A DNA stretch of 32,000 nucleotides from Thermodesulfobacteriota bacterium (lineage in GTDB: Bacteria; Desulfobacterota; WTBG01; JAGOGO01), in assembly GCA_026625185.1 (NCBI GenBank), contig CP113000.1:2862651-2894650 (forward strand). The letters run 5' to 3'. Of this stretch, positions 2,783-7,548 are shown one piece after another. A program made the translations under genes and the position numbers. The notes beneath the pieces are model-generated. The model was not told where the DNA came from. It made no database searches and saw only the letters and a program-made list of their open reading frames with translations. The stretch's first letter is position 1. Every line of letters starts with the position of its first letter.

Positions 2783-3504
2783 ATGGTAATGAATAAGAAG
2801 CTGCGGCATCTCATTGTGGCACTTGTGTTGGGGACGGTTTTTTCTTTTTTTATTGTCGGCATGAAAAGTACCAGGTCAGAAGAAACAAAAAAGGAAACCG
2901 CAAAAGAAGTGCCTCTTTTACTTTCGATTGCCGATAAATTTACGAGAGCAAAGCGACCCCCAGTCCAATTTTTTCACGATACACATGCCCATGCGCTCAA
3001 ACAAGAAGGATGCCAAGCATGTCACCCCTCGGATGAAAAAGGGATAACATCCTATTCCTTTCCCAAAAAAAAAATGAAAAAAACAAAAGGTCGCTTACCA
3101 ATTCTTACCACACCACATGTATCGGCTGTCATAAAAAACTTACCAAAGGCCCGGTTACCTGCAAAGCGTGTCATGTGTCAACAAATACAACCGCAAGTCC
3201 GCCCATCCGACCCGAAGGTCCTTTCAATTCCTATCTTCACGACCTCCATTCTGAACCTTCACAGAAAAATTGCGTAGTATGCCATCATACCGGAGATAAT
3301 TCCTCTTGCCGAAAATGTCACGGCTTAAAGGACAATGGTATCCCGTCCTACAAAACCGCCGCCCATTTATCGTGTTTAAATTGTCATTTGGAATCTAAGG
3401 CAGGCCCCACTTCCTGTAAAGGGTGTCACTCGGGAACACATGAATCTTCAGAAAAAATATCCAACCCTCCTGTCTGCAAAAATGATTATAGGTATTTTCC
3501 CTAA
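2783..3504 (+). pseudogene. Multihaem cytochrome c (7 CXXCH), split by a 1-nt frame change in an A10/A7 homopolymer region (true pseudogene, phase variant or assembly error)
   Basis: The frame-2 ORF (2783-3277) has a signal anchor and CQACH. Frame 1 is open from 3037 and reads ..SLTNSYHTTCIGCHKKLTKGPVTCKACH.., continuing into ORF 3175-3504 with CVVCH, CRKCH, CLNCH and CKGCH. After 3090, frame 2 has no haem motifs. A10 is at 3065-3074 and A7 at 3077-3083. Confidence 0.7.
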
Positions 3505-3553
3505 AAACCTAAACGCCGCTAATTTTTGAGCTGATGTCCTTGGTCACGGCTTA

Positions 3554-3606
3554 ACCCCGTTGCTTTTCGTTTTCAATTGGGTAGATCCGCCCCTAATGTT
3601 TTCCCC
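3554..3606. repeat. Repeat B, copy 1 (putative right end of the IS200-like element)
   Basis: ACCCCGTTGCTTTTCGTTTTCAATTGGGTAGATCCGCCCCTAATGTTTTCCCC aligns with 8424-8477 at roughly 75-80% identity by hand alignment, in the same orientation. Confidence 0.55.
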
Positions 3607-3664
3607 ATTTATGCATTTTATTAGTGGTCAATATTTTTAGTGTATTTTTTCATTTACTGGCGAT

Positions 3665-4137
3665 TTATAGACTAACACAGAGCTGAGTTGCCTCTCCGTT
3701 CGAAACCATGCGGTATCGCTATTTAGCTACCGTAGGTGACGCTATTCCACCGTTGGTGCCGCGCTCAATCACAACGATGTTATTATACCCTCTCCCAGTC
3801 TTCTATTTCTCCTTTATATATCCTAACCACCGGACTAGCCTCTGGTTTATTGATATCTTTGGAAACAGCTATCAAATGAATATGATTGGGCATAAGACAA
3901 TAGGCTCATATGGATACTTGTTTTAGGGAAGTGTGGGGGGGTGTGGGGCCAGTGTGGGGGTCGGGCCAAACAAGTAATCGATAATATTTTTAGGCCATAA
4001 CGTTTCTTGGCTTCATAAAGCCACGTTAGTCATCTCCGGCAATCCTTGGAAAATTTGAGCAGAAATTCCCTTTTATGGAAGCCGTGGGTGATATGCCATA
4101 TTTGCCCGGGAACATAATGTCTTTTAGCCCGTGCCAT
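3665..4137 (-). pseudogene. Y1 (IS200/RAYT-type) transposase pseudogene
   Basis: The minus strand from ATG at 4137 reads MARAKRHYVPGQIWHITHGFHKREFLLKFSKDCRR*LTWLYEAKKRYGLKILSIT[insert]TSIHMSLL.. This resembles the N-terminus of IS200-like/REP-associated Y1 transposases as I recall them (..HY.PG..WH.T.R.H.REFLLKF...W...L..AKKRYGL.IL.Y.VTSNHIHLL). Downstream there are in-frame stops and frame changes. Confidence 0.6.
3915..3976. repeat. 9-bp inverted repeat (TACTTGTTT / AAACAAGTA) enclosing a G-tract-rich triple GTGTGGGG repeat
   Basis: IR arms are at 3915-3923 and 3968-3976. Between them are G7 (3935-3941), G4 (3945-3948), G5 (3956-3960) and G3 (3963-3965), separated by 2-7 nt. This fits the G3+N1-7 quadruplex motif and is unique in this AT-rich window. 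Confidence 0.7.
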
Positions 4138-4171
4138 TAATCACCGTATATAACGTTATTTCACCTTAAAA

Positions 4172-4254
4172 AAATCAATATAAACCCAAATCCTCTCGGA
4201 TTTTGGAAATTATCATTTTTAATTTTAATTATTTAACTTGGCCCGATCCCCTAC
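4172..4254. repeat. Repeat A, copy 1 (putative left end/leader of the IS200-like element)
   Basis: 83 bp, 72/83 identical to 4628-4710 in direct orientation. It contains the hairpin CCAAATCC-TCTC-GGATTTTGG (4186-4206). On the minus strand it ends about 34 nt upstream of the transposase ATG. Confidence 0.75.
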
Positions 4255-4279
4255 ATAAATCACCCACCACTTTCTCAGA

Positions 4280-4585
4280 TTATTCTATGATATTTCCATT
4301 ACCAGTCTTCTTATAGTCAAGTTCGACAGAGTTTACAAATGCTATTCTGCCCACAGAATTAGGTAAAAATGAATGGGCTTTGCACCAGTCCTTAAATGTT
4401 TCTGGATCTATGTCAACACGAAGAGCAATGTTGTTAGCTCTTTTAATCTCTTCTAATTCTTTTTTGACAACAGCCTGCCAATCTTTATAGGTCGCAGGCA
4501 TATCTTTAGTATCTGTAAAGATGGTAAGTGCCTTATTATAAGTAAGATCATCCTTGTACCATCCAATTCCTATAATATCGTTCAT
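4280..4585 (-). CDS. Hypothetical protein (about 101 aa), no recognisable family
   Basis: ORF 4280-4603. GGAGG at 4597-4593 lies 7 nt before the ATG at 4585 (MNDIIGIGWYKDD...), so 4585 is the preferred start. It is preceded by repeat A2. Confidence 0.55.
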   Translation of the reverse strand: MNDIIGIGWYKDDLTYNKALTIFTDTKDMPATYKDWQAVVKKELEEIKRANNIALRVDIDPETFKDWCKAHSFLPNSVGRIAFVNSVELDYKKTGNGNIIE

Positions 4586-4627
4586 TCTCATACCTCCATT
4601 CATTTATGAGGTTCGTATGGGGAACCC

Positions 4628-4710
4628 AAATCAATATAAACCCAAATTCTCTCGAATTTTGGAAATTATCATTCGTAATTTTAATGAATTACCTTAGAAC
4701 GACCCCCTAC
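4628..4710. repeat. Repeat A, copy 2 (solo copy upstream of the 101-aa ORF)
   Basis: 87% identical to A1. Its hairpin is CCAAATTC-TCTC-GAATTTTGG (4642-4662). Relative to A1 it carries a compensatory C:G to T:A change. Confidence 0.75.
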
Positions 4711-4942
4711 GCTCAAAATCAGCGGCGGCGCGCAGCGCCGTCCGCTGCACCTGCGCGGACGGGTAATACTTGGACATGTTCACCCACGCGTAGGCGCCTT
4801 GCTCGGAGGGAAACTGGATCTTCACCTTGTTCTTGGGATTGCCGAACGTTTCAGCTAAGAGGTGGGCAAAGGAGTGCAGCGGATTTGCCCATCCAACTTC
4901 AGCCGTTTGTTCGGCAATACTATTCAACCAATTGTCAAGCAA
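4694..4942 (-). other. GC-rich ORF fragment (82 codons, TTG start only). Possibly a 5'-truncated foreign gene, with its 3' end overlapping a palindrome.
   Basis: No ATG start and no RBS. It overlaps the GGDEF gene's 3' end by 19 nt. Its GC content is clearly higher than its neighbours. It contains the bulged palindrome at 4720-4747. Confidence 0.25.
4720..4747. other. Bulged GC-rich palindrome (attC-like candidate)
   Basis: CAGCGGCGGCGC-gca-GCGCCGTCCGCTG forms a 12-bp stem with one unpaired base. An overlapping alternative stem is CCGTCCGC/GCGGACGG. Confidence 0.3.
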
Positions 4943-5826
4943 TTTCTCCCCGCAGCTTTGCTTTTGTACAAAAGTTTATCAGCTCTATTTATAAGGCTTT
5001 CCATGGTATCGCTTTCGCTAATGAGCGTAGCACCAACAGAAATTGTGACCCGCAACATTTTGTCATTATTATTTATGTATGAACTGGCTACGAGAGTCCG
5101 TACTCTGTTTCCAAGATTTTTAAGATCGTGGTCGTTTGTGTTACGTATAATACCAATAAACTCTTCTCCTCCCCAGCGGCCATAAAGATCAAAAGGTCTG
5201 GAGTTAGCAACAAAAGTATTTGCAACAAATTTAAGAACATCATCACCTACATCATGGCCATAGGTGTCATTGAACTGTTTAAAATGATCAATATCCATGA
5301 ACAGGACACCAAAGGGTACGTTAAAGCGTTTTTTTTCTTCAAACCTGATTTGTATTTCTCTTTCGATATAATATCTGTTTGCTAACTGAGTAAGATTGTC
5401 AAGAAGAGCTAGTTTTTCCAACTCTTTCACTCTCAGTTCGTTGGCTGACTGATTGCCAATATCGGTAAATAATTCTATCCCACCGATTATACTTCCTTTT
5501 CTGTCGATTAATGTACTGACTCGAACAGAAACTGGAATTCTGTGACCGTCCTTATGGTGCATGTATATTTCAGCTTCGCGAGGTTTTCCATCAGCAATGG
5601 CTGCTGCAAGAGGACACATTCCTTTGCAAAGATTATTACCATCACTATCGACGTGAGTGAGTATCTCATTGGCGCAAGATTTACCAACAACCTCACTAGC
5701 AGTGAATCCAGAGATCCTTTCAGCAGCTTTATTCCAGTATGAAATAATTCTGTCTTGATCTACAAAATATAAACCATCATGGAGGTTTTCAATAATCCTT
5801 TCATAAAAATCTTTTTCTAAATTCAT
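4924..5826 (-). CDS. PAS-domain diguanylate cyclase (GGDEF, active site GGEEF, I-site RxxD present)
   Basis: 300 aa. The N-terminal PAS region reads IIENLHDGLYFVDQDRIISYWNKAAERISGF. The C-terminal GGDEF domain reads FMDIDHFKQFNDTYGHDVGDDVL...RPFDLYGRWGGEEF. Confidence 0.9.
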   Translation of the reverse strand: MNLEKDFYERIIENLHDGLYFVDQDRIISYWNKAAERISGFTASEVVGKSCANEILTHVDSDGNNLCKGMCPLAAAIADGKPREAEIYMHHKDGHRIPVSVRVSTLIDRKGSIIGGIELFTDIGNQSANELRVKELEKLALLDNLTQLANRYYIEREIQIRFEEKKRFNVPFGVLFMDIDHFKQFNDTYGHDVGDDVLKFVANTFVANSRPFDLYGRWGGEEFIGIIRNTNDHDLKNLGNRVRTLVASSYINNNDKMLRVTISVGATLISESDTMESLINRADKLLYKSKAAGRNCLTIG

Positions 5827-5866
5827 AGAGTCTTTCTCACGCTCTTTTTGGTTTGTTGTTTATACA

Positions 5867-5929
5867 GCCGAACGCCGGGCATCAGCGGGAGGCCCAGTTT
5901 ATGGCCGATCCGCTGCATGCCTTTGATAG
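5867..5929. other. Bulged palindrome (attC-like candidate) that serves as the IS110 insertion target. Its right part continues at 7571-7579.
   Basis: GGCATCAGCGG (5878-5888) pairs with CCGCTGCATGCC (5910-5921) over 11 bp with one unpaired base. There is an inner GGCC/GGCC pair, with GCCGAAC (5867-5873) and GTTATGT (7573-7579) as outer AAC...GTT boxes. Confidence 0.35.
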
Positions 5930-6004
5930 TCATTAAGGCCTCCTCCTAAGGCATGATAAAATGTCTTTTGGATAAAAACAATTCTAACCAAAGGAGGAAA
6001 CCTT

Positions 6005-7051
6005 ATGAGATTCTACACCAATCAACACAAATTCTATTGTGGTATCGATTTGCACGCCCGATCCATGTACATCTGCATTCTGGATCAGGAGGGCAATACC
6101 GTGCTTCACAAAAACTTCAAAACCACCCCGGAATCCTTTCTTCGGGCCATCCAACCTTACCGGGAGGATATTGTCGTCGCCGTCGAATGCCTTTTTGTCT
6201 GGTTCTGGCTTGCCGATCTTTGCAACCGGGAAGCGATCCCTTTTGTTCTTGGACATGCACTCTACATGAAAGCGATCCATGGTGGCAAAAGCAAAAATGA
6301 CAAAATTGATTCCCGGAAAATCGCTGTTCTTCTCCGGGGAGGAACGCTGCCGACAGCCTATGTCTATCCGGAGGCCATGCGCTCAACCCGGGATCTCCTC
6401 AGGCGGCGAAACCATTTAATGCGAAAACGCTCCGAACTGCTGCCCCATATCCACAACACTAACAGCCAATATAACCTTCCCGAGTTTGAAAAGAAAATCT
6501 CATACAAGGCAAATCGTGACGGCGTCTCCGATCACTTTCCTGACCCGTCCGTTCAGAAAAGTATCGAAGTGAATCTTCAACTCCTCGATCTCTATGACCG
6601 GCTCCTTACCGAACTGGAACTTTTCATCGTCAAGCAAGCCAAAGGGAACGACATCCGAAGCTTTTATCTGCTTCGAAGCATCCCCGGAATGGAAAAAATC
6701 CTCAGCCTCATTGTACTGTATGAAGTTCATGATATCACCCGCTTTGCCCGTGTCCAGGACTTCGTTTCCTATTGTCGTCTGGTCAAATGCCCCAGAGGGT
6801 CAGGAGGAAAAAAGTCCGGCGCCAAAAACAGCAAAATCGGCAACGCCCATCTCAAGTGGGTCTTCTCCGAAGCAGCCTGTCTTTTCCTCCGAGGCAACGA
6901 ACCGGCTCAAAACTATCACGACCGCCTCGTTAGCAAGCTCGGCAAGGGAAAGGCTCTTTCAATCATTGCCCATAAAATCGGCCGGGCCGTCTACTTCATG
7001 CTCAAAAGAAAGGAACCGTTCAATGTAAACACTTTTTTTGCCCATATATGA
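6005..7051 (+). CDS. IS110-family transposase/recombinase (DEDD N-terminal domain + Transposase_20-type C-terminal domain)
   Basis: 348 aa. Motifs: YCGIDLHARS, VAVECLF, KNDKIDSRKIA, and C-terminal SIPGMEKILSLIVLYEVHDITRF...GSGGKKSGAKNSKIGNAHLKW. RBS AAGGAGG at 5991-5997. Confidence 0.9.
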   Translation: MRFYTNQHKFYCGIDLHARSMYICILDQEGNTVLHKNFKTTPESFLRAIQPYREDIVVAVECLFVWFWLADLCNREAIPFVLGHALYMKAIHGGKSKNDKIDSRKIAVLLRGGTLPTAYVYPEAMRSTRDLLRRRNHLMRKRSELLPHIHNTNSQYNLPEFEKKISYKANRDGVSDHFPDPSVQKSIEVNLQLLDLYDRLLTELELFIVKQAKGNDIRSFYLLRSIPGMEKILSLIVLYEVHDITRFARVQDFVSYCRLVKCPRGSGGKKSGAKNSKIGNAHLKWVFSEAACLFLRGNEPAQNYHDRLVSKLGKGKALSIIAHKIGRAVYFMLKRKEPFNVNTFFAHI

Positions 7052-7548
7052 CGGGACGAGGTAGGCGATCCCAACGCCTAACTGGAACGCCTTTTTCGGG
7101 ATATCATCTTCAGGGTGCTTTACAAAATTAATCCGATTGCATCAACGAATGCGCATAGCGCCATAGGAAAATAACCTGTAAATCCGCTGCCTTGATTGGA
7201 CGCCTACCTAGGTCCCCATTAATTTTATACGGTGGTGCAATGACAACGGTTTTTCGTGTGTTGCCCCACCCCCGAGCCCCCATTGCAACTGGACTCCCAG
7301 AGCATAACCGGGGAGAGCCCGACTTTTGATAGGGCCAGCATGCGGGTACGAATGATCTTCTAGTTGCGGGCAAAAGCCCCAGGCGCAAACAGCGCTTTAT
7401 CCTCAATAGGTGTTTGGTGCAGACACGTTTCTGCAAACCTGTTCCTTGGAAACTAAGCCGGCATCGTTGGCCTTGTTACAGCATCATTGTTACTTGTGGC
7501 GCAGAACATCTTTTATTCTTTTTCTCCGTCAAGGGGGACTTTTTTCTC
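7052..7548 (+). ncRNA. Candidate bridge/seek RNA region in the 3' tail of the IS110-family element
   Basis: About 500 nt with no credible ORF. An interrupted 16-bp long-range helix joins 7053-7070 and 7197-7214, and there are local hairpins (e.g. 7363-7390). Segments 7323-7333 and 7406-7414 copy the left and right flanks of the insertion site. Confidence 0.35.

Follow-up and report, generated by a model that had tools for sequence, protein, structure and literature searches.

The window analysed here, a 32,000-nt stretch of a 3.3-Mb genome assembled as a single contig, carries between positions 4280 and 9124 sizeable open reading frames (ORFs) that all lie on the minus strand and are interrupted, at about 5930–7570, by an element with an IS110-family transposase gene on the plus strand. 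The features that we annotated around this interruption are as follows.

4713–4751, minus strand: probable attC relic, the L-box core alone, with GTAGGGG as R' and no R''; contains the palindrome at 4720–4747
4841–4915, minus strand: attC_C, a full attC whose R'' box GCCGAAC begins 8 nt past the stop codon of the GGDEF gene; R' is GTTCGGC
4924–5826, minus strand: cassette 3, PAS-GGDEF diguanylate cyclase, 300 aa (TIGR00254, 156.9 bits; PF00990; PAS domains)
5867–5924, minus strand: main part of attC_B, with R' GTTCGGC (5873–5867), L' arm, loop with an inner GGCC pair, L'' arm with one extrahelical base, and a 5-nt spacer
5925–7572, plus strand: IS1111-type insertion sequence (IS), ISGsu4-like, 1648 bp, single copy in the genome
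6005–7051, plus strand: DEDD transposase gene, 348 aa, intact (NF033542, IS110 family RNA-guided transposase, 185.7 bits; PF01548 and PF02371)
7052–7572, plus strand: 3' non-coding region (NCR), presumed seekRNA/bridge-RNA gene
7076–7082, 7325–7333 and 7406–7417: NCR segments GCCTAAC, TTTGATAGG and ATAGGTGTTTGG, respectively
7573–7579, minus strand: displaced R'' box of attC_B, ACATAAC, 3 nt past the stop codon of the ORF at 7582–7872
7582–8283, minus strand: cassette 2, ORFs of 128 aa (7897–8283) and 96 aa (7582–7872), no Pfam or NCBIfam match
8289–8354, minus strand: attC_A, with R'' TTCTAAC, a stem around the palindrome at 8311–8330, and R' GTTATAT
8501–9124, minus strand: cassette 1, ORF of up to 207 aa, no family match
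11772–11984, minus strand: IntI remnant, C-terminal ~68 aa only (TIGR02249, 115.9 bits at profile positions 247–314, versus 73.7 for XerD)

The attC sites were searched for with our own covariance models and not with that of IntegronFinder. Model R1 was built from 11 seed sites and model R2 from 21, and neither contained a sequence from the window. Seeds for R1 were taken from cassette arrays elsewhere in the genome and from IntI-adjacent arrays of genomes that host relatives of the IS; each was turned so that the extra bases fell on the L'' arm, and the set was then aligned. This orientation rule returned the known strand in three of three sites of locus L020, where a complete IntI faces five cassette-like ORFs and the junctions are classical attC sites. 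Arrays beside the four complete IntI genes of the IS-host genomes were mostly ended by contig ends, and L020 was the only useful one. Since RNAalifold returned no structure for the seed alignment, the structure of R1 was written by hand, while for R2 the model was built anew on an R1-guided alignment of 21 unoccupied sites, some of which come from the metagenome IS loci described below. R1 found the non-seed sites of L020 on the correct strand, as well as the aadB attC of a clinical class 1 integron (27 bits); in the genome region 524000–533000 it gave no match at E up to 10. When covariation in the model helices was evaluated, none of 500 shuffles reached the observed score and slid controls fell from 83% to 25–40% paired, the alignment for this test being fitted to the model, so that the support it gives is partly independent only. 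A naive scan for AAC...GTT hairpins with complementary R boxes and a stable fold returned 461 and then 81 genome matches; it was dropped in favour of the covariance models because most of these matches were spurious and real sites with poorly pairing R boxes were missed.

All attC matches in the window fell on the minus strand, which is that of the cassette ORFs. attC_A scored 33.9 bits with R1 (E = 4e-6) and 31.3 bits with R2 (E = 1.7e-5), and attC_C, whose R boxes pair at 7/7 positions, scored 22.9 bits (E = 0.005) and 24.5 bits (E = 8e-4), respectively. The palindrome beside the IS, attC_B (hit at 5867–5931), reached 19.2 bits with R1 and 29.9 bits with R2 (E = 3.9e-5 over the whole window), the latter a score in which the first 7 bases of the IS stand in for the true R'' box that the IS has cut off; a truncated-hit search of 5700–5928 gave 13.9 bits only. 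The proposal made in the preliminary description, that the target of the IS is an attC, was thus borne out by the models for both the occupied site and its sister at 8289–8354. The stretch at 11646–11700 was not significant with R1 or R2, an Rfam search of 3000–13000 at E up to 1 returned nothing, and the density of the GTTCGGC/GCCGAAC motif along the genome showed no enrichment.

The structure of attC_B agreed with the model in detail. The arms at 5878–5888 and 5910–5921 that had been drawn from the letters, with one unpaired base and an inner GGCC/GGCC pair, are present in the sequence and were recovered on folding, the unpaired base being C5916 of the plus strand, and the rejoined site had a minimum free energy of −15 to −17 kcal/mol (z about −3). 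Its top strand, AAC followed by AAAGG-CAT-G-CAGCGG-A-TCGG...CCGCTG-ATG-CCCGGC-GTT, corresponds column for column to the model consensus. The outer 7-mers described earlier, GCCGAAC (5867–5873) and GTTATGT (7573–7579), do flank the palindrome; as the R boxes GTTCGGC and ACATAAC, each has 6/7 consensus positions with GTT and AAC intact, and they pair weakly with each other (4/7). The textbook extrahelical base of an attC is G; that of attC_B is a C on the bottom strand, and C, T and G were all found among the high-scoring sites. The orientation, which the preliminary description had left undecided, could be assigned to the minus strand from the asymmetry of the arms, with the extra bases on L'', and from the ORFs, which end just before R''. 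These features indicate that the palindrome at 5867–5929 is a genuine integron attC site on the minus strand.

Two further palindromes had been described as relatives of this one, and of the three a pair proved to be full attC sites while the third is a relic; the full attC at 4841–4915 had been missed. The 8-bp perfect palindrome at 8311–8330, with its ATAAC and GTTAGAAC flanks, is present and forms the core of attC_A. The bulged 12-bp palindrome at 4720–4747 is present as well, but it does not belong to a full attC: the match around it (4713–4751) covered model positions 13–52 only (R1, 12.7 bits, E = 3.3; R2, 17.3 bits, E = 0.047), GTA replaces GTT in R', and there is no AAC at the place of R''. 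By our reading of the aligned rows by eye, its core of ~28 nt is identical to that of an IS-occupied attC in the metagenome contig L118. It is probably an attC relic.

Evidence for a cassette array also came from the genes. In a 1.8-kb metagenome contig (L036), a homolog of cassette 2 is the first cassette beside a divergent, complete IntI (434.6 bits versus a cut-off of 265), and the DNA homology between the window and this contig (82% identical) starts exactly at GTTATAT, window position 8295, which is the R' box of attC_A. By this comparison the GTT of attC_A is a proven cassette border, as integron cassette exchange predicts. The 128-aa ORF of the same cassette has three relatives among 5.8 billion proteins. 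At another locus, L037, the homologous cassette retains CATATAAC at the R'' place of attC_B, and no recognisable attC was seen beyond it. The L037 homolog, itself cut by a DDE_Tnp_1 (IS4-type) element, aligns across both the 128-aa and the 96-aa ORFs, and the pair in the window may therefore be one split gene.

The IntI remnant is co-oriented with the cassettes, and the integron is not a complete one: an intact intI is absent, and 68 C-terminal residues are left. The integrase gene at 10652–11506 (284 aa) matched TIGR02249 at profile positions 3–181 and 238–314 only, without the IntI-specific segment, and adjoins a broken IS91-family transposase gene (9423–10637); we read the two as one inserted IS91-type element. 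This element (9423–11506), with its transposase split over three frames and its Xer-like integrase, separates the IntI remnant from the first cassette, and a perfect hairpin, GTATCCGGA...TCCGGATAC, at ~9133–9170 may be its end. Along the minus strand the order would then be the IntI remnant, the IS91-type insert with its own Xer-like integrase, three cassettes each ended by an attC, and the attC relic. With sedentary chromosomal integrons and with CALINs, reportedly clusters of attC sites without an integrase, the window shares a series of unrelated small genes that all point the same way and have an attC behind each of them, as well as the lack of a working integrase. Unlike these, the window retains a co-oriented C-terminal remnant of IntI, and its array has been invaded by two different mobile elements.

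The element that interrupts the array shows the features of the IS1111 family, namely a DEDD transposase, subterminal inverted repeats (sTIRs; 12 bp, 5934–5945 and 7556–7567) and a long NCR downstream of the transposase gene, with 520 nt at the 3' side versus 80 nt at the 5' end. This pattern of sTIRs, a short left end and a long non-coding right end has been described (PMC11187229, PMC11208160). The left end starts GATAGTCAT and the right end finishes ...TTATAGGT, the transposase gene is antisense to the cassettes, and the genome holds one distant relative of the IS, at 67% nucleotide identity, near 1.0475 Mb. Other relatives were found in genomes and, by means of the left-end junction, in metagenomes, where at least 120 exact left-end junctions were obtained.

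The boundaries of the IS had been set at 5930–7570, and the comparison of occupied with unoccupied attC sites corrected them to 5925–7572. At the right, the end ...GGCCTTATA-x-G-K was followed directly by GTT in 21/21 complete copies, although the 7-mers that begin with this GTT were of 13 different kinds, mostly GTTAGGC-like and thus the complement of an R'' box; the stop codon of the neighbouring cassette was often 4 nt from the junction, which we read as the TAA of GCCTAAC. At the left, the 5-nt spacer of an unoccupied attC runs straight into GTT, as in L114 (...GGTCAACTCCAGCGCCAT, then GTTATGT), whereas occupied members of its repeat family in that array show the full spacer and then GATA and the IS (...GGTCAACTCCAGCGCCTT, then GATA...). 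In agreement with this, the models put GATAxTC (GATAGTC in the window) at the position of R'', both here and for 16 of the 18 flank matches among the loci listed. These comparisons suggest that GATAx and xGK are termini of the IS and that it occupies 5925–7572, directly beside the AAC of R'', from which we infer the exact crossover. With GATAG assigned to the left terminus of the IS and GT to its right terminus, 7 bases of the 72-nt rejoined site reported earlier would belong to the IS, and therefore the native site would consist of 5867–5924 and 7573–7579 (65 nt). On these boundaries an IS-free allele would read ...CATGCCTTT joined directly to GTTATGTGATT..., and the circle junction ...GGCCTTATAGGT joined directly to GATAGTCATTAAGG....

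An alternative partition of the same bases appears unlikely. In it, the native target already has TTGATA-x-GK before GTT, the IS extends from 5929/5930 to 7569/7570 with a shared ATA core, and the site belongs to a special attC subclass with a 12-nt R''–L'' spacer. Such a target would account for the ATA that every copy shows at each junction, a pattern that an IS110-type core would produce, and two 9-mers of the NCR together spell TTTGATAGGTGTT; however, the extra 7 nt were present in 0/30 unoccupied attC sites, including sites of the same family in the same array, and the models place GATAxTC exactly where R'' belongs. The motif TTGATA.GKGTT was not found beside an attC in the genome itself, in 5 host genomes or in 401 genomes of the phylum, which gave chance matches without attC features only. 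The alternative does fit the lengths of the terminal extensions better, with 6–7 and 3 nt as compared with the 7 and 3 nt beyond the sTIR given in PMC11187229, while ends at 5925 and 7572 leave 9 and 5 nt beyond the 12-bp sTIR. Weighing these observations, we retain the boundaries 5925 and 7572 and consider it very probable that 4700–12000 is a decayed minus-strand chromosomal integron in which the ISGsu4-like IS sits exactly between R'' (ACATAAC) and the R''–L'' spacer of the middle attC.

An uninterrupted copy of the site, the search for which the preliminary description had proposed, was not found in the metagenome collection (using a pattern with a gap of 0–9 nt), by DNA search in 7 relatives of the family, in the 6 contigs carrying an identical cassette, or via exact-protein look-ups. 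All 6 of these metagenome contigs also carry the IS, and the insertion is therefore fixed in this population.

To evaluate the target of the IS beyond the window, we used the left flanks of its relatives. At least 80 metagenome loci and five earlier loci gave 81 unique left flanks, and 73 unique, independent flanks were used in the geometry and fold tests. With R1 at E up to 1, 46 of the 48 matches in the 80 loci listed were on the strand opposite to the IS, and these comprised 18 matches to the left flank of the IS itself and 28 to neighbouring attC sites. Among the loci listed, the matches to the element's own flank ended at the same base, +3, in 16/18 cases, and the neighbouring attC sites had the same orientation by 28 to 1, the exception being L108. 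With R2, some seeds of which come from these loci, 56/57 matches among the loci listed were on the opposite strand. Strict attC geometry was present in 22/73 unique flanks as compared with 1/1460 random positions in the same loci, and the fold-based test was positive for 21/73 flanks as compared with 3/365 controls (both among the loci listed). The ISGsu4-like group thus appears mostly to insert at the same conserved edge of attC, in the same orientation where this could be scored. About 20 of the 73 left flanks among the loci listed, including those of L052, L071, L074 and L092, had no hairpin or attC features, so that the targeting is strong, not exclusive; the featureless flanks may stem from insertions that missed the usual target or from sub-lineages that seek a different one.

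Single loci departed from the common layout in other ways. L108 is the only locus with attC matches on the same strand as the IS. In L100, strong attC matches at 1094–1150 and 1459–1517 lie where the body of the IS was expected, and hence only a left-end stub of the IS is present there. A relative on a Pseudomonas plasmid (H23, 30% identity) was set aside, as it is not in an integron.

Insertion into attC is known for the IS1111-attC group, which consists of ISPa21, ISKpn4, ISPst6 and ISPa25 (Tetu & Holmes 2008 and Post & Hall 2009, cited in PMC11187229 and PMC3001079). The group is described as monophyletic, and its members insert close to the 5' end of attC in an antisense orientation relative to the cassettes (PMC3001079). 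The preliminary description had pointed to this subgroup, and the attC-targeting habit of an IS1111-like element that it invoked was confirmed, while membership of the published subgroup was not. For comparison, we located ISKpn4 in a plasmid class 1 integron, using 78 residues given in the PMC11187229 supplement. The element interrupts the qacL attC there; it is antisense to the cassettes, and its right end points towards R''. The window IS therefore shares with this group the IS1111-type organization (sTIRs, DEDD transposase, long 3' NCR), insertion at the R''–L'' end of attC, a right end that faces R'' and an antisense transposase gene, as checked on ISKpn4. That the IS is nevertheless an ordinary member of the group, with nothing new about it, is very improbable despite this common behaviour: relative to the uninterrupted qacL attC, ISKpn4 inserted 6 nt from R'', versus 0 nt for the window IS, so that the end of attC is the same and the exact point is not, and BLASTP between the two transposases gave no significant match (E = 0.39). 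The window transposase is instead 64% identical over its first 78 residues, at the N-terminus, to that of ISGsu4 (ISfinder; protein in the supplement of PMC11187229), which in the identity matrix of PMC11187229 is itself at 17% to ISKpn4, ISPst6 and ISPa21. The hosts differ as well, with mobile integrons of Pseudomonas and enterobacteria on one side and environmental anaerobes and metagenomes on the other. These comparisons place the window IS outside the published IS1111-attC clade, in an ISGsu4-like lineage with the same attC habit. The searchable literature mentions no attC targeting outside the IS1111-attC group, and an attC-seeking lineage separate from it would be the main addition of this analysis.

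The remaining explanation, that the palindromes are terminators or a REP-like family with AAC and GTT flanks by chance and that the IS simply prefers hairpins, in the way that ISPa11 prefers REPs, is already contradicted and can be given next to no weight: each of the palindromes is indeed downstream of a gene, the motifs AAC and GTT are short, and the naive hairpin scan had hundreds of matches in the genome, but blastn-short of the three palindromes against the whole 3.3-Mb genome returned the queries themselves only, so that the genome-wide REP family envisaged earlier did not materialize, and the model E values down to 4e-6 with strand agreement, the cassette border common to the complete integron of L036, the nearby IntI remnant and the 28-to-1 orientation of neighbouring attC sites in the flanks of relatives (R1, among the loci listed) all speak for integron sites.

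We then considered how the IS might recognize attC. Like other IS1111/IS110 elements, it is probably guided by an RNA from its 3' NCR. The NCR segments TTTGATAGG (7325) and ATAGGTGTT (7406) are identical to the left and right junctions of the IS with its flanks, respectively. The second is part of ATAxGTGTTTGG, which was kept in 22/22 complete relatives, and in 20 of the 22 its x was the same base as the x at the right end of that element, with all four bases occurring. This covariation suggests pairing between RNA and DNA. GTTTGG, the part of this segment that corresponds to the flank, is one base off GTTAGG, and ATAxGT-GTTTGG would thus join the right end of the element to a near-copy of the complement of R'' (GTTAGG). 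At the start of the NCR, GCCTAAC (7076–7082) equals the consensus of the attC R'' box and was kept as YCTAACTGG in 20/22 copies, and the NCR of ISKpn4 also holds an R''-like TAACAAT. The segment at 7325–7333 did not follow the flanks in the relatives. As proposed here, the element would read the one sequence common to all attC sites, and a guide that reads R'' would explain how it lands in attC sites with completely different hairpins. Elsewhere in the NCR, ATCCGCTGCCTTGATTGG (7182–7200) resembles the L'' arm and spacer of the target with 5 nt missing, and TTGATT[G/A]GGAC was kept in relatives.

With the bridge RNA- or seekRNA-guided elements of the IS110/IS1111 type (IS621, ISEc11; PMC11208160, PMC11187229), the window IS has in common the transposase family, an NCR on the side expected for IS1111, and short segments in this NCR that match the flanks and the ends of the element. 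It differs in that its two junction-like segments share the same polarity and mix bases of flank and element, which could not be matched to the published loop scheme, and in that its guide is a putative one. If the guide is as proposed, it would provide a natural, ready-made case of a seekRNA whose target is degenerate and defined by structure. Sequence is hardly conserved among attC sites, and an element that finds R'' would also show which part of them can be read as duplex DNA.

The insertion would have consequences for the array. R'' has been moved 1.6 kb away, and attC_B can therefore no longer form its R box; with R'' split from the rest of the site, folding and recombination by IntI should stop, and cassettes 2 and 3 would be locked together. 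What had been an unexplained hairpin may accordingly be described as a mapped structure, a decayed integron with three cassettes and one recombination site probably disabled by insertion. On balance we favour, with some reserve, the broader view that a second, phylogenetically separate IS1111-type lineage, ISGsu4-like and RNA-guided, has converged on attC, cuts at R'' with a guide that matches the attC consensus, and is common in environmental metagenomes, as the exact left-end junctions suggest, so that programmable recombinases of at least two independent families would parasitize cassette arrays, with the neighbouring cassettes frozen wherever one inserts. Should the independence of this lineage from the IS1111-attC group hold, RNA-guided transposases would have acquired attC targeting twice, and insertions of this kind may often hold back the shuffling of cassettes in environmental integrons.

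Further traces of integron-like sequence were seen elsewhere in the genome and at the edge of the array. A second IntI remnant, frameshifted, lies ~100 kb away (genome positions 2992757–2993441), and downstream of it, after ~620 nt, the same strand carries an attC match (R1, E = 1.5e-4); its co-oriented layout is the same as that of the window and resembles the 'inverted integrase' type of integron. A direct repeat of ~85 nt in the window (4164–4250 and 4627–4713) brackets an ORF at 4280–4603 (107 aa, no family). Neither R1 nor R2 found an attC in the repeat, and a third copy, at genome positions 2697347–2697422 (L033 4972–5028), lies ~320 nt from an attC. Just past the last cassette-like ORF, at 3925–3965, the window carries a G-rich run with repeated GTGTGGGG units.
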